DNA of 18,354 nt from Deferribacteraceae bacterium (GTDB lineage Bacteria > Chrysiogenota > Deferribacteres > Deferribacterales > JAISNW01), in NCBI GenBank assembly GCA_031278965.1, contig JAITJJ010000017.1:1-18354 (forward strand). The letters run 5' to 3'. Shown piece after piece: positions 32 to 15,043 of the stretch. Each line of letters opens with the position of its first letter. Positions within the stretch are counted from its first letter, which is position 1. The notes under the pieces are model-generated. The model made no database searches and was not told where the DNA came from. It saw only the letters and a program-made list of their open reading frames with translations. Made by a program: the position numbers and the translations under genes.

Positions 32-557
32 GTAATTTGCCCGAAACACCCGACCTCTTTAACTTCGAAAGTCCCAAAATTATCAGCTCCAACTTATCTA
101 TAAATATACTCCCGCTCGCTCTGTTTTTCAATAGATAATGGTTAATACATTATTCTTCTTCCTTCAATAAAATAAAATCGGTTATCACTATCAAAATAAC
201 CTTCTTCAAAAACTTGTAAGAGCTCCCCTTCTCCAACTGTAATATGAGAGGCCTTATCAGATACAGTAAAAAACGTTCTCTTATCCCTTCCTGCGGAAAT
301 AACTGTATCTCCACATCGGCTTCTATACCCGATTTCATTATTGCCCTAATATCCATAACTTCCAACTTCAGTTCAGGAAATACCGGCAGAAGGTGAGTAT
401 CAGGAAATTCTATCTTTTCATATTCCTCGCTTGGAAGGTCGGTTACCGCTTGTAAAAAATCTCTGATAAGCTCCGGTCTTTTAGGGTCTGCCATTAAAGA
501 CTTGAAAACAATATCAAGTTTGGAAGATAAGAGCGGTTTCTCTCTATTCTCTGGCAT
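32..557 (-). pseudogene. Rpn-family recombination-promoting nuclease / PD-(D/E)XK 'putative transposase' (YhgA-like), disrupted. A 135-aa N-terminal ORF (150..557) ends at an in-frame TAA at 147-149. The same frame then stays open to the repeat boundary and window edge.
   Basis: N-terminus ...DIVFKSLMADPKRPELIRDFLQ... and the DVEIQ...ERFLLYL...LEKGSSYKFLKKVILIVITDFIL block match the conserved YhgA/Rpn (TIGR01784-like) core. Length is 135 aa versus ~300 aa typical. Reading past the TAA in the same frame gives another ~48 open codons (CINHYLLKNRASGSIFIDKLELIILGLSKLKR...). Confidence 0.55.
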
Positions 558-1474: not shown

Positions 1475-2542
1475 TTATTCTATCTCTTTTACCCATCCGA
1501 ATTTATCTTCAATTATCCCGAGCTGAATTCCGGTTAGGGTATCATAGAATTTCTTTGTGAGTTCTCCCATCCCCCCGTCTCCCGGTATGATCTCCCTACC
1601 CCCCCAGACGAGTTTCCCCACGGGGCTTACAACGCAAGCGGTGCCGCTGCCGAAGGCTTCCTCAAGGGATCCCTTTTTATAGGCATCATATAATTCATCA
1701 ATGCTGATAGGTCGTTCAGCTACCTTTACTCCCATATCTTTTGCCAGAGTTATGATAGAATCTCTTGTGATCCCCGATAGGATAGTTCCCCCCAAGGACG
1801 GGGTAATAAGTTCTCCGGCTATCTTAAAGAATATGTTCATGCTGCCGACTTCTTCAATATATCTGTTTTCCCGCCCGTCAAGCCAGAGAACCTGACTGAA
1901 GCCGTTCTCATGTGCCAACTCGCTTGCTTTTAGGCTTATGGCATAATTAGCACCGGTTTTATGATTCCCGGTTCCTCCTCTGACGGAGCGCGCATATTCT
2001 GTTTCAATATATATATCCACTGGGGCGAGCCCTTTTGCGTAATAAGCGCCAACCGGAGAGAGGATAATATAGAGATAGTAGTCCTCCGCGGAGGCTATCC
2101 CCACATAGGGATCAATCCCGATATAGGCGGGGCGGATATAGAGGGATGTGCCGGGCGCTTTCGGTATCCACTCCTTCTCTATCTTTATAAGCTCATATAG
2201 GGAATTTAAAAGAAAATCCGCATCAAACGCCCGCATACTCATACGTTCTGCGGAAAGAGTCATTCGTTTCACATTGTCCCATGGGCGGAAGAGAAGAAAA
2301 CGACCGTCAGGAGAACGGTAAGCCTTTAACCCTTCAAATACCTCCTGTGCATAGTGGAGAACAAGGGCGGCAGGGGAGAGAACAAGATCCCCGTAGGGTT
2401 CTATCGCCGCATAAAACCAACCTTTTTCCCTGCTGCGTTTCATAAGCAGCATGTGGTCGGTAAATATTCGCCCAAAGCCTAGGTTGCTTTCATCAATCGG
2501 CTTCTCTTTCAATTTTTCCCGTTTTATAAACTCTAGCTTCAT
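1475..2542 (-). CDS. ilvE: Branched-chain amino acid aminotransferase (PLP fold type IV).
   Basis: 355 aa. N-terminal FGRIFTDHM motif, the EGLKAYR, YIRP and GTGNHKTGANY blocks, and an overall length typical of class-II BCATs. Confidence 0.9.
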   Translation of the reverse strand: MKLEFIKREKLKEKPIDESNLGFGRIFTDHMLLMKRSREKGWFYAAIEPYGDLVLSPAALVLHYAQEVFEGLKAYRSPDGRFLLFRPWDNVKRMTLSAERMSMRAFDADFLLNSLYELIKIEKEWIPKAPGTSLYIRPAYIGIDPYVGIASAEDYYLYIILSPVGAYYAKGLAPVDIYIETEYARSVRGGTGNHKTGANYAISLKASELAHENGFSQVLWLDGRENRYIEEVGSMNIFFKIAGELITPSLGGTILSGITRDSIITLAKDMGVKVAERPISIDELYDAYKKGSLEEAFGSGTACVVSPVGKLVWGGREIIPGDGGMGELTKKFYDTLTGIQLGIIEDKFGWVKEIE

Positions 2543-2641: not shown

Positions 2642-3472
2642 TTATCTAAAGTTTTCATTCATGCTGCCCATGCGGTAGCCTTGCAAATCCAGGGATACAT
2701 AGGTAAAGCCGAGGGCTTTAAATTTGGAAACCACTTTATCTCTGACGGCGCTCTCTGTTAAAACGGCAAAACCGTTTTCATCGGTCTCTATACGCGCCGT
2801 GTCCCTATGGCAGCGCACCCTCACTTGACGCACCCCTAAATCAAATATATATTGCTCCGCCGCCTCCACTTTGGAGAGCGCCTCCGTTGTGATTCTCTCC
2901 CCGTAGGGGAAACGGGACGCGAGGCAGGCAAAAGCGGGTTTATCCCAAGTGGAGAGGTTAAGTTGGCGGGAGAGCCGGCGGATTTCACCTTTTGTGAGCC
3001 CCGCCGCCTTCAGCGGACTAAGTATTCCGTCTTCCTTAACCGCTTCAAGACCCGGTCTATAGTCCAAGATATCGTCCGCATTGGAGCCTTCGGCGATATC
3101 TGTTATGCAGAGTTCCTCCGCCGCACTCCTAACCTTTGCAAAGAGGGCTTTTTTGCAAAGATAGCACCTGTTGTGCGGGTTATCGGCAAAGTTTCCTTCA
3201 TGCAACTCTTCTGTGCGGATGAGTATATGCTCCACCCCTTGTTCCCTGCAAAAAGATTGCGCCGCCTCAACTTCCCGCTCCGGAAAGAGAAGCGAGCGGG
3301 CTGTAATTGCCACTACCCTTCCGCCAATGGCACCCTTTGCGATTTTAAGGAGGAAGGCGGAATCTGTTCCGCCGGAAAATGCCACTGCCAGAGTTGGGAG
3401 GGTTTTTAAGAAGTCCGTCAGCGTTTTAAGTTTATCTGCCTCACCCGGCGCACTTATAATTACCCGCCGCAT
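2642..3472 (-). CDS. LarE-family PP-loop ATP pyrophosphatase (TIGR00268-type sulfur transferase). It carries a CxxC + Cys triad, suggesting a [4Fe-4S]-dependent, non-sacrificial type.
   Basis: 276 aa. PP-loop AFSGGTDS near the N-terminus. The DYRPGL, SRFPYG, VRVRCHRDTARIE and LGFTYVSLDLQGYRMGSMN blocks align along the full length with the Lactobacillus plantarum LarE sequence as I recall it. Cys103-x-x-Cys106 (CYLCK) plus Cys183 (FACLASRFPYG). Its start overlaps the ThiS stop by 13 nt. Confidence 0.85.
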   Translation of the reverse strand: MRRVIISAPGEADKLKTLTDFLKTLPTLAVAFSGGTDSAFLLKIAKGAIGGRVVAITARSLLFPEREVEAAQSFCREQGVEHILIRTEELHEGNFADNPHNRCYLCKKALFAKVRSAAEELCITDIAEGSNADDILDYRPGLEAVKEDGILSPLKAAGLTKGEIRRLSRQLNLSTWDKPAFACLASRFPYGERITTEALSKVEAAEQYIFDLGVRQVRVRCHRDTARIETDENGFAVLTESAVRDKVVSKFKALGFTYVSLDLQGYRMGSMNENFR

Positions 3473-3657
3473 ACGAAATTTACTATTTCCACAGTATCAG
3501 AGTCTTTTATATAAACCGTTCCAAAAGAATCTTTAGGCAGTATCTCCCCGTTCAGTTCCACCGCAACCGTATCTCTATTGATATTTCTCTCTTCCAAAAA
3601 TACCGCGACAGTTAAAGGTTCGCTTATATGAAAGTATTCTCCGTTAATCTGCGCCAT
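3460..3657 (-). CDS. thiS: ThiS/MoaD-family sulfur carrier protein, 65 aa, C-terminal Gly-Gly.
   Basis: Ubiquitin-like small protein ending ...VEIVNFVCGG. Pattern G.TV..LLE.........VAVELNGEI.P......T.I.D.D.VEIV.FV.GG matches ThiS. The symbol denotes the family only; the biological role here is uncertain. Confidence 0.75.
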   Translation of the reverse strand: MAQINGEYFHISEPLTVAVFLEERNINRDTVAVELNGEILPKDSFGTVYIKDSDTVEIVNFVCGG

Positions 3658-3660
3658 AAT

Positions 3661-4815
3661 TCACCTTAAGGCCTGTTCAAGATCGCTTAAAAGATCATCA
3701 GATGCTTCAAGACCCACGGAAAGGCGGAGAAATCTGTCATTTATCCCCAGTTTTTCAAGGAGTTCTTCCCCCATATCCGCATGGGTTTGGAGTTTTGGAA
3801 AGGTGATAAGCGATTCCGTTCCTCCCAGGCTTTCCGCAAAACTAAATACCTTTACCTTTTCAAGAACTTTAGGAAGAGCTTCCGCTCTTTTAAGCTCAAA
3901 GGAAACAATTGCCCCCGCTGACTTGGATTGGGCGGCAAGGAGAGAATAACCCGGAGCGTCTTTTAAACCGGGGTAATACACCTTAGCCACCGCAGTATGC
4001 CCTGTCAGATATTCCGCTATCTTCCGAGAGTTTTCCGTCTGACGCTCCATCCGCACCGAGAGACTTTTCAGGCTTCTTAGGAGCAACCAGGATTCAAACG
4101 GATTTAGAACCGCCCCCGCCGCATTCTGGATATATTTTAATTTTTCGGCTACCACCGCATCCTTGGCCGCCGCAAAACCTGCCAGAAGATCGTTATGCCC
4201 GCCCAAATATTTTGTGGCGCTGTAGACGGATATGTCCGCCCCCAATTCTATCGGGCAGAGATTGACGGAGGTAAGAAAAGTGTTGTCTATTATAAGTTTG
4301 GCGCTATTTTTATGGGCAAGCGCTGATAGATAGGGGATATCGCATACTTTTAAGAGTGGGTTGGTAGGAATCTCCGCGAAGATCGCCGAAAAAGGTTTTG
4401 CACCCTTTTCCTCCATAACTTTTTTGTCGGAAGTGTCCGCATAATCCGTCTCAATATGGGGGAAAAAGTTTTCCAATAAACGGAAAGTGCCGCCATAAAG
4501 ATCCTCCGATATAATAAGCCTCTCTCTTTTTGCTAAAGATTTATTGTCAGGGGGTTGAAAGAGTGCACGGAAAACCGCATCAAGCGCCGCCAAACCGCTG
4601 GAAAAAGCGTATGCTCCTGATGCCTGTTCCAGTTTTGCAAACAACTCCTCCAGAACAAAGCGAGTGGGGTTTGAAGTTCTTGTATAGTCATAGCCGGTGC
4701 TTTTGCCCAGAGCCGGATGTTTATATACCGCACTCTGATATAACGGCATACTAACCGCGCCAGTTCTGTAATCCCAACCGGAACCCGCCTGTGCCAATAG
4801 GGTTTCTGTGTCCAT
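3661..4815 (-). CDS. Cys/Met-metabolism PLP-dependent enzyme (cystathionine gamma-synthase / beta-lyase / O-acylhomoserine sulfhydrylase family).
   Basis: 384 aa. The blocks YTRTSNPTR, SGLAA, DNTF and the PLP-lysine motif SATKYLGGHNDLLAG align end to end with the E. coli MetB sequence as I recall it. It stops 3 nt before the ThiS start. Confidence 0.9.
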   Translation of the reverse strand: MDTETLLAQAGSGWDYRTGAVSMPLYQSAVYKHPALGKSTGYDYTRTSNPTRFVLEELFAKLEQASGAYAFSSGLAALDAVFRALFQPPDNKSLAKRERLIISEDLYGGTFRLLENFFPHIETDYADTSDKKVMEEKGAKPFSAIFAEIPTNPLLKVCDIPYLSALAHKNSAKLIIDNTFLTSVNLCPIELGADISVYSATKYLGGHNDLLAGFAAAKDAVVAEKLKYIQNAAGAVLNPFESWLLLRSLKSLSVRMERQTENSRKIAEYLTGHTAVAKVYYPGLKDAPGYSLLAAQSKSAGAIVSFELKRAEALPKVLEKVKVFSFAESLGGTESLITFPKLQTHADMGEELLEKLGINDRFLRLSVGLEASDDLLSDLEQALR

Positions 4816-4910: not shown

Positions 4911-5623
4911 TTAAGGTTTTCTCACCCATAGGATTCTTTCAAACCCATAGAAGCTCCAAGTATAGGAGTGCACCCGTTTTAACAGCACTGAATACGGCTC
5001 AAACAGCAACCCTATCAACCAAGCTATGGGCGGTTTATAAAATTTTGATTCAAAAATAAGATCACATCCTTCATCACGAATTATTTTTTTAAGTTTCTCA
5101 AGATCTGGAGGGGTTCCGGTATCTGTTTTGTCGTCATAATAATTCAGAGTTCCACGTCGGCTTGGGAAATGGATACTTTTTTCAGACGGACATGAAAAAT
5201 AGAGCAAACCGCTTTTTTAAGCGCTTTAAGTATATTTATGAATGTTTTTCCCCTTTCAAAGCAGTGCTCCAAGTTATGGGCGGATATGACCACGTCAAAG
5301 CGATCTGCCATCTCCCCTATCTTATCGGCAAAAGCTGAAGGTGTAACGATTATAAATTCATCCAATATCAAACTACTCATATTGTAAATTCCCACGTCAA
5401 GCCTTGTATAATGGAAACTGGGTATGGCTCTTTTAACAGTTAATATCGCATCGTTACCACACCCTACATCCAAAATGGAAGGTTTCTGGAAAAGCTCTGA
5501 TACATGGTAGAGAAAAGACGCCCTCCCATGGGGTTTCACAATTTTTGCAAGTATTTTGCGCACTGCACGGGCTCCTTTTAACCGGAACATAGGATTTCTA
5601 TCTCCACTCCCCGTAGAAATCAA
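4911..5623 (-). pseudogene. Class I SAM-dependent methyltransferase split into two overlapping ORFs (5144..5623 and 4911..5207) by a frameshift in a homopolymer run.
   Basis: LDVGCGND (SAM motif I) and DVVISAHNLEH in the 5' ORF. The 3' ORF continues the fold (LYFSCPSEKS). Adding one A to the coding-strand A6 run (plus-strand T6 at 5213-5218) restores ...ILKALKKSGLLYFSCP... Confidence 0.6.
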
Positions 5624-6215
5624 GTTTAATCTCTTGTTTGCCCCAATTCATGGCAGCGGATTTGGGGCGACTTTTTTCCCAAACATACTTGGTAATCGTT
5701 CTAGGGCGGATAATGGTGGCAATATTCATAGAATTATCGGTGATTAGAGTTAGATCACCTTTCTGAAATACGGAGAGCCCCCCCAAAGTGCTGTAACCGT
5801 AAGTCGGATCCGGCAGCGGCGGCGGAAATGTCAGGGCGGAGTTCATAAGCCGCACCTCCCTCGCCCCTATAATCTGAGCAAGGTCGGATGTGATATCCTC
5901 TTCCCCCTTTATCGCCCTATACTTACCATTTTTTAGGGTGACTTCCGCTACAACCGCCCCGAAGAGCCCCAACACTTTAAGCTCAAGATCACCTCTGCAA
6001 TTCTTTTTCAATAAGCCGCTGAAACGCTGTTCATCGCCTTCAGCGGTATAGGAGATACGAACCTTGCCGCTATATTCGCATAAGGAAAGAGATTTTTCGC
6101 GAACCGCTCTCAGCGCCTCATCTTTGCTGACAGGCACCCTGTAAATTCCTGCACTGCGCCCCGCGCACCCAGCAAGAAACAAGAACACTAAAAAAAATAA
6201 GAGGAGTCTATGCAC
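5598..6215 (-). CDS. Lipoprotein, possibly a LolB/LolA-like beta-barrel fold.
   Basis: Signal peptide with lipobox (LFLAGC), 205 aa. Its start overlaps the TPR gene stop by 1 nt, and its 3' end overlaps the methyltransferase start by 26 nt. The fold guess comes only from the alternating hydrophobic beta pattern. Confidence 0.55.
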   Translation of the reverse strand: MHRLLLFFLVFLFLAGCAGRSAGIYRVPVSKDEALRAVREKSLSLCEYSGKVRISYTAEGDEQRFSGLLKKNCRGDLELKVLGLFGAVVAEVTLKNGKYRAIKGEEDITSDLAQIIGAREVRLMNSALTFPPPLPDPTYGYSTLGGLSVFQKGDLTLITDNSMNIATIIRPRTITKYVWEKSRPKSAAMNWGKQEIKLDFYGEWR

Positions 6216-7798: not shown

Positions 7799-7847
7799 AA
7801 AAAATACCTATATAATCAGCGCTCAGATCGCCTTTAACAAAGGCAAA
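7788..7847. repeat. Direct repeat copy A. It is a degenerate duplicate of the last ~20 codons of accC (4-bp deletion, 2 substitutions) fused to the TPR gene start codon.
   Basis: Hand alignment. 7788-7847 (aactttttcataaaaaatacctatataatcagcgctcagatcgcctttaacaaaggcaaa) versus 8028-8091 (aactttttcataaaaaatacctatCTATataatcGgTgctcagatcgcctttaacaaaggcaaa). Confidence 0.8.
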
Positions 7848-8027
7848 TACTGCCCGAAAAAGTGCAATAACAAATGGTGAGCGAAAGCGGATTTACTCCG
7901 CTGCAACGAACCTGAATCGCTAGCTGAGCGTGAGCGAAGCGAATTATGCGACGAAGCGAGCAGCGAACGAGATTGCCATATCGGGGGATAGGTAGAAAGG
8001 TAACCTGTCCCCTTTCTGAACACTATT
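7848..8027. other. ~180-bp unique insert between the direct repeats. It is rich in GAGCGA(A)GCG motifs and has no credible ORF.
   Basis: The only ORF (7823..8038, 71 aa) is low-complexity S/R/L-rich and begins inside the duplicated repeat. The sequence holds several short hairpins. Confidence 0.5.
7984..8017 (+). terminator. Intrinsic-terminator-like hairpin on the plus strand: GGGGA-t-AGGT-agaaaggta-ACCT-g-TCCCC followed by TTTCT.
   Basis: Read by eye. A 9-bp interrupted GC-rich stem with a T-rich tail. No co-directional plus-strand gene is upstream, so the function is unclear. Confidence 0.25.
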
Positions 8028-8091
8028 AACTTTTTCATAAAAAATACCTATCTATATAATCGGTGCTCAGATCGCCTTTAACAAAGGCAAA
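8028..8091. repeat. Direct repeat copy B, the authentic accC 3' end.
   Basis: Encodes the accC C-terminus ...[18 protein letters not shown]. Confidence 0.8.
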
Positions 8092-9372: not shown

Positions 9373-9812
9373 TATATGGCTTCCACCACAAAGATTGGCT
9401 GGCCGTATTCCACCGGATCCCCGTTTGCCACTAAAATATCAACTATGCGGCAACGGTAATCCGCCTCAATGGTATTCATTATCTTCATTGCCTCAATTAT
9501 GCAGAGGGTCTGCCCCTTTTCGGCTATATCTCCGGCTTTGACAAAAGGAGCTGCCCCTTGGGACGGCGCGGCGTAATATGTTCCTATCATCGGGGATTCA
9601 ATATAATTTCCTTCTTTCACGCTCCGCTCAACGGCTTTTTCTTCAACAACCGCTTCCTCTTTGGAGTGTGCAGGAACGGGCGTATAGTGTTCTTGGGAAA
9701 ATTTTGCGGCTTTGGACAGATATATGCGTTCCTCACCGCTTTCAACTTCAATCTCTGTTAAACCGGATCGGTCAAAGAAACGGATCAACTCTTTAACATC
9801 TTTTAGTTCCAA
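9372..9812 (-). CDS. accB: Acetyl-CoA carboxylase biotin carboxyl carrier protein.
   Basis: 146 aa with the C-terminal biotinyl domain and EAMKIMN biotinylation motif. Confidence 0.9.
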
Positions 9813-9827
9813 TTTAGTCTCCTAACT

Positions 9828-10403
9828 TTAATCAGCGCGTTTTATGCGCTCTATATACACCCCTTCCCTGGTATCAACCTTAATTATATCACCTATGTTG
9901 ATAAAGAGAGGAACGCTTACAATTCCGCCGGCGGATAGCTTTGCGGGTTTGGTGGCGCCTGTTACGGTGTCGCCTTTTAAGCCAGGGTCCGTTTCCACCA
10001 CCGGAAGTTCCACAAAGTTCGGGAGGGTGATCCCTATGGGAGCTTTATTAAATATCTGAACCGTAACTATGGTATTTTCCGCCATAAAGTCTTTGGCATC
10101 CCCCGCCACATCAACCGGAATGTCAAACTGCTCAAAGGAGACGCTGTCCATAAAATAGCAGTTATCCGCATCTCTGTAAAGATACTGCATCTGTTTTTGT
10201 TCAAAATCGGGCTGTTTAATCTTTTCGTCTGAAATATAGGTGCGCTCTATCACCCGCCCGGAGATCAGATTTTTTACCTTTGTGCGGACATTCGCTCCGC
10301 CGCGCCCCACCTTTATATGCAGATACTCCACAACGCTGTAAGGTTCGCCGTCTATTTCAATTTTGATTCCTTTCTTAAACTGGTTTGGGGTTATCACTGC
10401 CAT
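9828..10403 (-). CDS. efp: Translation elongation factor P. Arg sits at the tip of the beta3-beta4 loop (KVGRGGA).
   Basis: 191 aa. KOW-like domain I, central FMD..FEQ, C-terminal GDT..G..KPA and VP.FI..GD.I.VDTR motifs. Confidence 0.9.
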   Translation of the reverse strand: MAVITPNQFKKGIKIEIDGEPYSVVEYLHIKVGRGGANVRTKVKNLISGRVIERTYISDEKIKQPDFEQKQMQYLYRDADNCYFMDSVSFEQFDIPVDVAGDAKDFMAENTIVTVQIFNKAPIGITLPNFVELPVVETDPGLKGDTVTGATKPAKLSAGGIVSVPLFINIGDIIKVDTREGVYIERIKRAD

Positions 10404-13129: not shown

Positions 13130-15043
13130 CTATTTTATCGGTGTTCCGGCGGCAACGGTGTCCGGCAGGAAGAGCAGGGAGTGTTTTTCGCCGTCAGAGG
13201 CGGCAAGCACCATCCCGTGTGAGAGCACTCCCATAAGTTTGGCAGGTTTAAGGTTAGAAACAAAGACAACGGTTTTCCCGACAAGCTCCGCCGGGGCAAA
13301 GCTTTTGGCGATCCCCGCCATAACGGTTCTCACTCCAGTTCCATCGTTTATGGAGAGTTTTAGAAGTTTTTCTGAGTTTTCCGCCTTTTCAGCCGCCTCA
13401 ATCTTTCCCGCGATAAGGCGCACTTTTGAAAAATCCTCAATCCCTATCAGAGATTCGGGGGCTACCGCTTTGGGTGCGGTTTTTTGGGGATCGCTCTTTA
13501 TGCTTGCCATAACCTCCGCCGGATCAAGGCGCGGAAAGAGGGGGGCGATATCCCCAAGCGCTCCCGGCTTCAAGGTTTTAACCGCCAACAGATCTTCCGC
13601 CGAAGAGAAGCGGGCTATATGGGGAACGCCTAACTCTCCGCAGAGTTTGAGGGCGGTTTCCGGCATAAAAGGGGTGATAAGGCGGGAGAGGATGCCAATG
13701 GCGTCACATGCTGTATAGAGCACCGTGTCAAGGCGTTCAGGAGAATTTTTTGCCAAATCCCAAGGTTTTTCGGTATCTATATATTTATTCAGAGCGCCCA
13801 CTATCCCCCAAGCGGAAGCAAGGGCTTTATTGAAGGCGGTTTCATCCATAAAAGAAATATATTCTTTTCCCAGACGTTCAACCTCACTATAGAGTGCGTT
13901 CTCCCGCCCCGTCAATGGGTTTGGAGCAGGAATCACCCCGTTTTTATAGCGGTTCACCATTCCCAGAGTGCGGTTCACAAGGTTTCCCAGATCATTTGCC
14001 AGATCGCCGTTTATCCTGTGGATCAAGGCCTTATATGAAAAATCTCCGTCAAGACCGAAAGTAACCTCCCTCAGCATAAAATATCGCACCTGATCATTTC
14101 CGAATTTGTCGGTTAGGTAAAACGGATCTATGGCGTTTCCAAGAGATTTGGACATCTTCTGTCCCTCCACTGTCCACCAGCCGTGTGCAAATATCTGCTT
14201 GGGGAGGGAGAGATCAAGCGCCATAAGGAGGGTGGGCCAGTAGACCGAGTGAAAGCGGAGAATATCTTTGCCCACCATATGTGTGCAATTCTCCCAAAAC
14301 TTCTGAAAGAGCGGAGAGTTTTCAGTATAGCCTAAAGCGGAGAGGTAATTTATAAGAGCGTCAACCCATACGTACACCACATGTTTGGGATCTCCCTTTA
14401 CGGGTATCCCCCAGCTGAAAGTGACGCGGCTGACGGAGAGATCCTTTAACCCCTCTTTAATAAAAGCTGTTATCTCATTCTTGCGCGATTCCGGTCTTAT
14501 AAAGTTTGGATTGTCTTCTATATGTTTTAAGAGGCGGTCTTGATATTTGGACATCTTAAAAAAATAGGTTGCCTCTTTCATACGAACGGTGGGTCTTCCG
14601 CAATCGGGGCAGAGATTGCCTTCGCTAAGCTGGGTTTCTGTCCAAAACGCTTCGCAAGGAGTGCAGTACCATCCTTCGTAATCCCCCGGATATATATCGC
14701 CTTTCTCTCTAAGAAGCTCAAAGGCAGCCTGCACCGTTTCTATATGGCGTTTTTCGGTGGTGCGGATAAAATCATCGTTAGAAATGCCGAGCTTTTCCCA
14801 TAGGGCAATGTAACGGGTAACCACCTGATCTGCAAGCTCTTGCGGAGTGAGATTTTTTGCGGCAGCGGCTTGGGCTATCTTCTGACCGTGTTCGTCTGTT
14901 CCTGTCAGAAAAAAGGTGTCAATCCCCCGCAAACGTTTGTAACGCGCAATCGTGTCCACGGCGAGGGTTGTATAAAGATGGCCTATATGAGGCACATCGT
15001 TTACATAATATATGGGCGTAGTAATATAAAATGTTTCAGACAT
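13130..15043 (-). CDS. metG: Methionyl-tRNA synthetase with a C-terminal EMAP/Trbp111-like tRNA-binding domain.
   Basis: 637 aa. HIGH motif (PHIGHLYT), KMSKS (KMSKSLGN), Zn-knuckle cysteines (CTPC...CPDC), and a C-terminal OB-fold. A GGAGA RBS lies 7 nt upstream. Confidence 0.95.
   Translation of the reverse strand: MSETFYITTPIYYVNDVPHIGHLYTTLAVDTIARYKRLRGIDTFFLTGTDEHGQKIAQAAAAKNLTPQELADQVVTRYIALWEKLGISNDDFIRTTEKRHIETVQAAFELLREKGDIYPGDYEGWYCTPCEAFWTETQLSEGNLCPDCGRPTVRMKEATYFFKMSKYQDRLLKHIEDNPNFIRPESRKNEITAFIKEGLKDLSVSRVTFSWGIPVKGDPKHVVYVWVDALINYLSALGYTENSPLFQKFWENCTHMVGKDILRFHSVYWPTLLMALDLSLPKQIFAHGWWTVEGQKMSKSLGNAIDPFYLTDKFGNDQVRYFMLREVTFGLDGDFSYKALIHRINGDLANDLGNLVNRTLGMVNRYKNGVIPAPNPLTGRENALYSEVERLGKEYISFMDETAFNKALASAWGIVGALNKYIDTEKPWDLAKNSPERLDTVLYTACDAIGILSRLITPFMPETALKLCGELGVPHIARFSSAEDLLAVKTLKPGALGDIAPLFPRLDPAEVMASIKSDPQKTAPKAVAPESLIGIEDFSKVRLIAGKIEAAEKAENSEKLLKLSINDGTGVRTVMAGIAKSFAPAELVGKTVVFVSNLKPAKLMGVLSHGMVLAASDGEKHSLLFLPDTVAAGTPIK

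Follow-up and report, generated by a model that had tools for sequence, protein, structure and literature searches.

On its minus strand, an 18,354-bp contig of a Deferribacteraceae bacterium (JAITJJ010000017.1, assembly GCA_031278965.1; this whole stretch is called the window below) encodes a LarE protein that, judged from its sequence, is with high probability a typical non-sacrificial, [4Fe-4S]-dependent member of its family. The larE gene stands third in a tightly packed unit, behind a gene for a pyridoxal phosphate (PLP) enzyme of the trans-sulfuration family and behind thiS, the gene for a small sulfur-carrier protein, and this arrangement could well couple LarE to sulfur mobilisation.

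By every measure of sequence and fold that we applied, the product of this gene is a LarE. It scores 319.7 bits against the NCBIfam profile TIGR00268 (cut-off 150), covering positions 2-259 of the 259 in the profile, and its residues 12-274 align with residues 5-266 of the L. plantarum enzyme (Protein Data Bank (PDB) entry 5udq; E value 4.6e-45; 37.5% identity), which bears out the end-to-end correspondence proposed in the first-pass annotation of this DNA. HMMER also matched the protein to entry 8cnz (E value 1.2e-25), named 'mmLarE-[4Fe-4S]' in the Foldseek listing. The AlphaFold2 model, computed with 62 homologues, has a predicted local distance difference test (pLDDT) score of 92.6 and gives Foldseek template-modelling (TM) scores of 0.77-0.84 with chains of the L. 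plantarum enzyme (the 5ud and 6b2 series of entries) and of 0.79-0.83 with those of 8cnz.

To place individual residues, we gathered LarE loci from representative genomes (80), from metagenomes (80) and from close relatives (three), aligned 161 homologous LarE open reading frames (ORFs) with the L. plantarum and M. maripaludis proteins using MAFFT, and counted columns over 164 sequences. The PP-loop responsible for ATP binding and adenylation is retained, as are the equivalents of the L. plantarum residues Ser180, Arg212 and Arg214, which bind the substrate phosphate; these roles are described in PMC9283937. The column of S186 holds serine in 159 sequences and threonine in five, the neighbouring R187 is invariant, and R218 and R220 occupy columns that are arginine in 164 of 164.

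The cysteines of the protein lie at positions 75, 103, 106, 122, 183 and 221. Retranslation assigns C103 to the codon at 3166-3164 and C106 to that at 3157-3155, within NRCYLCKK, and C183 to 2926-2924, within FACLASRFPYG. The first-pass annotation had thus read the codons of the CxxC pair exactly, together with a third cysteine just upstream of SRFPYG. HMMER aligns C103 and C106 with both cysteines of C-Y-N-C in 8cnz, and C183 with the cysteine of T-C-M-A-T-R. The L. plantarum counterparts are Trp97, Ala100 and Ser177, respectively, and its sacrificial Cys176 corresponds to Ala182 of the window protein. The triad columns are cysteine in 163 of the 164 aligned sequences, with the L. plantarum protein as the sole exception, and the triad is present in 161 of 161 collected homologues; the columns of Cys75, Cys122 and Cys221 are not conserved. 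Set against 8cnz, the L. plantarum enzyme and the 161 homologues, all three cysteines of the triad fall on cluster-ligand positions.

These positions are equivalent to C92, C95 and C172 of T. maritima LarE, a CXXC-C motif that was probed by mutating each residue and that binds a [4Fe-4S] cluster required for activity (PMC9283937). The third cysteine of that enzyme is likewise offset by one residue from the position of L. plantarum Cys176, no cysteinyl sulfur is lost, and turnover in vitro requires IscS and cysteine (PMC9283937); M. maripaludis LarE has also been handled as a [4Fe-4S] enzyme (PMC8961635). Our proposed identification of the ligands draws on the title of PDB entry 8cnz, on the alignments and on the T. 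maritima mutagenesis paper. The earlier call of an Fe-S-type LarE stands, as the triad maps onto both the T. maritima and the 8cnz cysteines and the L. plantarum Cys176 position is alanine. Its further suggestion that three-cysteine LarEs form a subgroup has to be given up: because 161 of 161 homologues and 'most LarE homologs' (PMC9283937, Chatterjee et al. 2022) carry the CxxC-C triad, it is not distinctive, and by sequence it is the majority LarE type rather than a special subgroup.

The NCBI product name of the window protein, 'ATP-dependent sacrificial sulfur transferase LarE', would make it a sacrificial enzyme of the L. plantarum type. Only this database name speaks for such an assignment; against it, the position of L. 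plantarum Cys176 is occupied by Ala182 and the full CxxC-C triad is present. The alignment has in effect already refuted the sacrificial assignment, which we regard as vanishingly improbable, and we consider 'sacrificial' a misnomer here. Via TIGR00268, NCBI applies the same term to CxxC-C LarEs more widely (the window protein, P0001, P0015, P0016 and others), although it fits the rare L. plantarum type only.

Of the three characterised enzymes compared, that of T. maritima shares with the window protein the SGGxDS PP-loop, the CxxC-C motif with its third cysteine one residue past the L. plantarum Cys176 position, the Ser/Arg phosphate ligands and, as predicted from these motifs, a non-sacrificial mode of action that requires an external sulfur donor. 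The T. maritima enzyme differs in having a fourth cysteine beside the third ligand, where the window LarE has Ala182, as do 162 of 164 homologues, and its gene is far from any cysteine desulfurase gene, whereas the window larE is joined to the PLP/thiS unit. M. maripaludis LarE (8cnz) shares the fold, and its three cysteines align position for position, but it is only 27-29% identical and has TRIL-S in place of SRFPYG. The L. plantarum enzyme shares end-to-end homology, fold, PP-loop and phosphate-binding residues; unlike the window protein it lacks the triad, has Cys176 in place of Ala182 and is a single-turnover enzyme.

In LarE homologues, a carboxylate is adenylated and a thiocarboxylate is then formed (PMC9283937). 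Applied to the window protein, this chemistry would have the PP-loop adenylate a carboxylate of P2CMN (the mononucleotide of pyridinium-3,5-biscarboxylic acid), with Cys103, Cys106 and Cys183 holding three irons of the predicted [4Fe-4S] cluster and a non-core sulfide on the fourth iron attacking the acyl-adenylate. Two such rounds would yield the bisthiocarboxylic acid mononucleotide P2TMN, the nickel-pincer cofactor's dithiocarboxylate precursor. As none of the protein's own cysteines would be consumed, LarE would need to be re-loaded with sulfur at each turnover. [quoted passage not shown]

The gene order on the minus strand of the contig is PLP gene, thiS, larE and ilvE (Table 1). Three nucleotides separate the end of the PLP gene from thiS, and the stop codon of thiS lies inside larE; the resulting 13-nt overlap, read from the sequence as gtATGcggcgggTAA, suggests co-transcription and translational coupling of thiS and larE. 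The ThiS protein scores 67.5 bits against TIGR01683 (cut-off 37.45), matches the Pfam ThiS family (5.6e-11) and retrieves the PDB ThiS entries 2k5p and 1tyg. The ilvE gene begins 99 nt downstream of larE on the same strand, with no terminator-like site found in the gap; it may be co-transcribed with larE and is not obviously part of the system. An Rfam scan of the window returned no riboswitch or leader, and consensus promoter and terminator scans around the operon performed no better than on shuffled sequence.

Table 1. Coordinates of larE, of its predicted functional motifs and of the adjoining genes in the window.
Feature	Position	Strand	Remarks
larE	2642-3472	-	276 aa; TIGR00268, 5udq and 8cnz matches, AlphaFold2 model, Foldseek
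LarE PP-loop S33-G-G-T-D-S38	3359-3376	-	ATP binding and adenylation; SGGxDS columns kept in 162-164 of 164 aligned LarEs
LarE Cys103-Tyr-Leu-Cys106	3155-3166	-	two of the three predicted [4Fe-4S] ligands; pair with CYNC of 8cnz
LarE Cys183	2924-2926	-	third predicted cluster ligand; one residue past the L. plantarum Cys176 position (Ala182 here)
LarE S186-R-F-P-Y-G191	2900-2917	-	S186 equivalent to L. plantarum Ser180, substrate-phosphate ligand
LarE R218-V-R220	2813-2821	-	equivalent to L. plantarum Arg212 and Arg214, substrate-phosphate ligands
thiS end/larE ATG overlap	3460-3472	-	13 nt; read from sequence
thiS	3460-3657	-	65-aa sulfur-carrier protein ending Cys-Gly-Gly (...NFVCGG); Gly-Gly codons 3463-3468; stop inside larE
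PLP gene	3661-4815	-	Cys_Met_Meta_PP trans-sulfuration family, 384 aa; Pfam PF01053 5.3e-122
ilvE	1475-2542	-	branched-chain amino-acid aminotransferase; NF009897 441.7 bits (cut-off 307)

The PLP enzyme carries its cofactor-binding lysine at Lys202 (4210-4212), in a SATKY motif, but its scores stay below the cut-off of every NCBIfam subtype model. The highest of them is with the cystathionine gamma-lyase/homocysteine desulfhydrase model of the MccB type (NF005810; 398.8 bits versus a cut-off of 594); the gamma-synthase and beta-lyase models follow at 359-391 bits, below their cut-offs, and the MetY-type model TIGR01326 reaches 248 bits against a cut-off of 495.1. Among solved structures the closest is 7d7o, a bifunctional cystathionine gamma-lyase/homocysteine desulfhydrase (334 bits), followed by gamma-synthases and beta-lyases (8sf4, 310 bits; 4l0o, 305 bits; 8jui, 301 bits).

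Genes for PLP enzymes of this family recur beside larE elsewhere. Orthologue-level copies of about 384 aa, scoring 357-370 bits, are separated from larE by 7-29 nt at five loci (L016, L035, L036, L037 and L111), and four of the five orthologue-level matches in the genome loci abut larE. Genes of the MetY type lie 1-88 nt from larE at L018, L025, L089, L103, L116 and L117. Counting the 100 well-flanked loci, those with 1.5 kb or more of sequence to either side of larE, 10 have a Cys/Met PLP gene on the same strand within 150 nt, in about five lineages, to which L025 contributes a further one. Among 139 operon-like neighbours at 78 genome loci, LarB/AIRC (21) and LarC (20) come first by Pfam count, followed by Cys_Met_Meta_PP (7), ThiF (6), Aminotran_5 (5), a family of class-V aminotransferases and cysteine desulfurases, and MnmA (3). 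At L015 the order is MetA-CysE-LarE-TcdA-like-MoeB-like E1-ThiS-NifX-like-Rrf2-MetY, which brings larE, two E1-family genes, thiS and metY together at one locus. In the L018 group, larE belongs to operons with the order MetY-LarE-CysK-MetA, with an Rrf2 regulator gene near. L011 and L025 share the order LarE-MoeB-like E1-HydE, with MetY nearby. At these last two loci, both from Clostridia (L011:9980-12922 and L025:1404-4371), HydE is an [FeFe]-hydrogenase maturase (TIGR03956, 516-526 bits), and no ThiS-like ORF was found nearby.

One further locus stands out by its leader. In a metagenome-assembled genome of the Peptostreptococcaceae (L016:9754-12594), larE comes first after a complete S-box leader composed of a promoter-like site (9754-9783), an S-adenosylmethionine (SAM) riboswitch (9808-9913; Rfam, 91.4 bits) and a terminator hairpin (9936-9960), and is followed by an orthologue of the window PLP gene and by an HD-domain gene. 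SAM control of a nickel-pincer cofactor gene is unexpected, and we have no explanation for it. No other S-box was detected upstream of larE at any of the loci using our own model, which was built from five sequences and has limited sensitivity. A second SAM riboswitch occurs in L016 at 14079-14183, about 1.1 kb upstream of nitrogenase-like genes on the same strand. Nitrogenase-like genes (Oxidored_nitro, Nitro_FeMo-Co/NifX-like) are found near larE at L016:15337-16893, L169:1500-4750 and L015:4890-5234, all of them in a sulfur context, and may be linked to sulfur salvage. At L169:6001-6948, a 315-aa LarE homologue (P0097) has a precomputed Cys_Met_Meta_PP match at its end, pointing to the fused or truncated remains of a neighbouring PLP gene.

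Across the homologue loci (L002-L161), larE has two kinds of neighbourhood. The first comprises larB and larC with NikR, HypA, CbiMQ and Mrp genes; larB lies within 4 kb of larE at 68 of 161 loci and larC at 61 of 161. The second comprises Cys/Met PLP enzymes, CysK-like, MetA, Rrf2, MnmA, cysteine desulfurase and MoeB-like E1 genes. Among the well-flanked loci, 53 have larB or larC within 4 kb, 17 have sulfur-metabolism genes, none has both and 30 have neither; the 17 sulfur-context loci represent about 10 lineages, and the mutual exclusion of the two contexts (Fisher 4e-7) is uncorrected for phylogeny. Part of this exclusion is positional, because membership of a lar operon in itself puts lar genes next door. 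LarEs from sulfur contexts are interspersed with those from lar operons in a neighbour-joining tree, and the only column that separates the two is position 208, with a weak Tyr/Phe difference. The sulfur-context LarEs form no separate clade, and on these grounds they were rejected as evidence for neofunctionalisation. Since the proteins interleave in the tree and no residue beyond the weak difference at 208 discriminates between them, the simplest reading is that both contexts are likely to house one and the same enzyme, whose gene sometimes stands beside sulfur-mobilising or sulfur-regulated genes instead of larB and larC. A contig devoid of lar genes, and 17 sulfur-context loci of which none has larB or larC within 4 kb, would also be accounted for by a LarE paralogue whose thiolation substrate is not P2CMN and which plays no part in the nickel-pincer cofactor. 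We consider such a paralogue very improbable, given the equivalog-level TIGR00268 score of the window protein, its retained substrate-phosphate ligands, the polyphyly of the sulfur-context LarEs with their lack of specificity-type residue differences, and the positional component of the exclusion.

What does the window unit then signify for sulfur supply? We judge the chances to be evenly balanced that it couples a [4Fe-4S] LarE to sulfur mobilisation. The 3-nt gap and the 13-nt overlap argue for coupling, as do the recurrent adjacency of PLP genes to larE, the ThiF, Aminotran_5 and MnmA neighbours, the gene assembly at L015 and the identity of 7d7o as the best solved relative of the PLP enzyme. 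Taken separately, a role of the PLP enzyme as sulfur supplier for LarE seems to us just short of an even proposition, and a role of ThiS as direct sulfur donor to LarE, for which the precedent is analogy with other systems, rather unlikely. The chief alternative is that the genes are co-located without any direct hand-off of sulfur, larE having landed in, or being co-regulated with, a sulfur-metabolism unit. The PLP enzyme would then serve methionine/cysteine interconversion, ThiS would serve thiazole synthesis with ThiG, and free sulfide or a housekeeping cysteine desulfurase would replenish the cluster, as shown for T. maritima LarE in vitro. We hold this alternative to be a serious if lesser possibility. 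It is favoured by the absence of the arrangement from the nearest relatives of all three genes, by the score of ThiS as a thiamin-type equivalog (TIGR01683), by the L018-group larE among biosynthetic, sulfide-consuming genes (MetY, CysK and MetA) near an Rrf2 gene, by the regulon logic of the L016 larE and PLP genes behind a SAM riboswitch with terminator, and by the sufficiency of IscS and cysteine in vitro (PMC9283937). It is harder to reconcile with a gap and an overlap that indicate a single co-translated unit, and with a PLP-larE adjacency that arose in several lineages with differing gene orders, for which we estimate a chance expectation of about 0.3% per gene, taking a few such genes per genome.

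A number of observations weigh against coupling. The closest relatives of the three genes do not keep them together: one LarE relative (L162, 72% identity) lies behind an rlmE-like gene, another (L163, 71% identity) behind atpB-atpE and a third (L164) stands alone; the only retrievable ThiS relative (L165, 68% identity, with the same NFVCGG end) is an orphan beside an HU gene; and the PLP orthologues L166 and L167, at 77-78% identity, stand alone. A dedicated conserved operon was rejected for this reason, the PLP-thiS-larE order being absent in the closest relatives of all three genes. Elsewhere, 160 LarE loci were searched for ThiS by phmmer, with a pair of ThiS sequences as queries, and by scanning short ORFs for a GG end; among about 160 other loci, L015 alone has thiS within 5 kb of larE. 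The MetY-type enzymes beside larE at several loci, with MetA and CysK flanking, consume sulfide and do not produce it. On the 18-kb contig there is no larA, larB or larC, and the window holds no ThiF/MoeB E1; the missing E1 calls into question the dedicated nature of the system and leaves the identity of ThiS untouched. The designation of the PLP enzyme as a 'C-S lyase' is plausible, not established, and a sulfur-supplying lyase is an assumption, because no NCBIfam subtype cut-off is passed and the structures of three subtypes are about equally close. Cluster binding itself, like every step of sulfur transfer, is something we infer. The partnership of ThiS and a C-S lyase with LarE that the first-pass annotation put forward accordingly survives in part. 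The packing is tight, PLP-larE adjacency occurs in about six other lineages and E1 and cysteine desulfurase genes recur near larE; its ThiS component has a counterpart at one among some 160 further loci, all three genes are found apart in their nearest relatives, no E1 is in the window, and the PLP enzyme is about equally near gamma-lyase, gamma-synthase and beta-lyase structures.

A different role for the trio would be a protein-thiocarboxylate route to homocysteine or methionine, on the pattern of HcyS/MetY in Wolinella or CysO/CysM in Mycobacterium, in which LarE makes the ThiS thiocarboxylate (ThiS-COSH) in place of an E1 and a sulfurtransferase and the PLP enzyme consumes it. This route would fit a ThiS that adjoins a Cys/Met PLP enzyme with no E1 in the window, the union of MetA, CysE, LarE, E1, ThiS and MetY at L015, a LarE chemistry that adenylates a carboxylate to form a thiocarboxylate (PMC9283937), and the placement of the L016 larE and PLP genes under a SAM riboswitch, and therefore their being on at low SAM. 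We nevertheless give it only a slim chance, slimmer than that of a paralogue with another substrate. The TIGR01326 score (as above) sets the PLP enzyme apart from the MetY type; JAMM protease and E1 are both missing from the window; an E1 gene stands beside larE at L015, L011 and L025, so that LarE is no E1 replacement there; and the nucleotide-phosphate residues of LarE are invariant (Arg) or nearly so (Ser/Thr), with no residue that splits sulfur-context from larB/larC-context LarEs. More broadly, the LarEs in Cys/Met operons (those of the window, L016, the L018 group and L015) might take part in sulfur assimilation itself, either by forming ThiS-COSH without E1 for homocysteine synthesis by the PLP enzyme or, in a milder form, with ThiS-COSH as the physiological donor to the LarE cluster, as TtuB is to TtuA. 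We consider this improbable.

Several known systems offer precedents for parts of the arrangement. In thioquinolobactin and pyridine-dithiocarboxylate (PDTC) biosynthesis (QbsE/QbsC/QbsL), adenylation of a small-molecule aromatic carboxylate is followed by its conversion into a thiocarboxylate, the sulfur coming from the thiocarboxylate of a ThiS-like protein. In chemical terms this is a precedent for a LarE-type reaction supplied by ThiS-COSH; adenylation there is the work of another enzyme family, and an E1-rhodanese and a JAMM protease, both lacking in the window, are part of the system. HcyS/HcyF/MetY of Wolinella and CysO/MoeZ/CysM of Mycobacterium synthesise amino acids via a protein thiocarboxylate and likewise have a ThiS-like carrier gene beside that of a PLP enzyme of sulfur amino-acid metabolism. 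The window differs from them in that its PLP enzyme is not of the MetY/CysM type and in that it contains a LarE but neither an E1 (HcyF) nor a JAMM protease (HcyD). In the TtuA/TtuB 2-thiouridine system, a PP-loop [4Fe-4S] enzyme works with a ThiS-like thiocarboxylate donor. As in that system, what is here predicted to be a three-cysteine [4Fe-4S] PP-loop ATP pyrophosphatase is encoded beside a ubiquitin-fold Gly-Gly carrier; in contrast, TtuA acts on tRNA and LarE on a nucleotide cofactor precursor, the pairing is not conserved for LarE (one of about 160 other loci), and the window has no E1 equivalent to TtuC. A parallel between LarE and TtuA/TtuB has been drawn before (PMC9283937).

The positions of the three genes in related genomes have features in common. 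The larE of L163:919-2870 and the PLP gene of L166:4238-7149 each lie just downstream of atpB-atpE, and that same PLP gene (L166:4238-7149) and the thiS of L165:8001-8607 each adjoin an HU gene. It may be that all three originate from a single chromosomal region undergoing rearrangement and were joined in the window genome later.

The rest of the 18,354-bp contig encodes a split methyltransferase, tetratricopeptide repeat (TPR) proteins, accB/accC, efp, an M24 peptidase, metG, PSP1 and an SPFH protein; neither thiG, thiH nor a JAMM protease was found in the window. Just upstream of the PLP gene on the minus strand, the ORFs 5144-5623 (159 aa, with weak matches to SAM methyltransferases) and 4911-5207 (98 aa) overlap in different frames, and together (4911-5623) resemble a single methyltransferase gene broken up by a frameshift or by faulty assembly. 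The 135-aa ORF at 150-557 (minus strand) matches only positions 2-122 of the 229 in PF12784 (PD-(D/E)XK transposase) and is by its sequence a truncated mobile-element remnant near the contig end. Neither Pfam nor NCBIfam matches three minus-strand ORFs (5598-6215, 7823-8038 and 900-1238); the one of 205 aa starts with a lipoprotein-like signal (...FLAGCAG...).

In summary, the cysteine triad by itself adds nothing new, as most LarEs are of this type and its characterisation dates from 2022-2024; the triad shows only that the 'sacrificial' label is wrong for the window LarE and for most proteins that bear it. The only sulfur source demonstrated for Fe-S LarEs is E. coli IscS with cysteine, in vitro only. 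Our literature searches found no paper that ties LarE to ThiS or to Cys/Met PLP enzymes, and a search on COG1606 found nothing. The coupling of larE to thiS behind a trans-sulfuration gene provides concrete candidates for the in vivo sulfur donor of LarE, and the recurrent placement of larE by genes for Cys/Met PLP enzymes, MoeB-like E1 and cysteine desulfurases, once with a SAM riboswitch, provides further ones. The neighbourhood pattern hints at such donors and does not prove them; no discovery in itself, it offers a small, testable lead on the source of sulfur for LarE.

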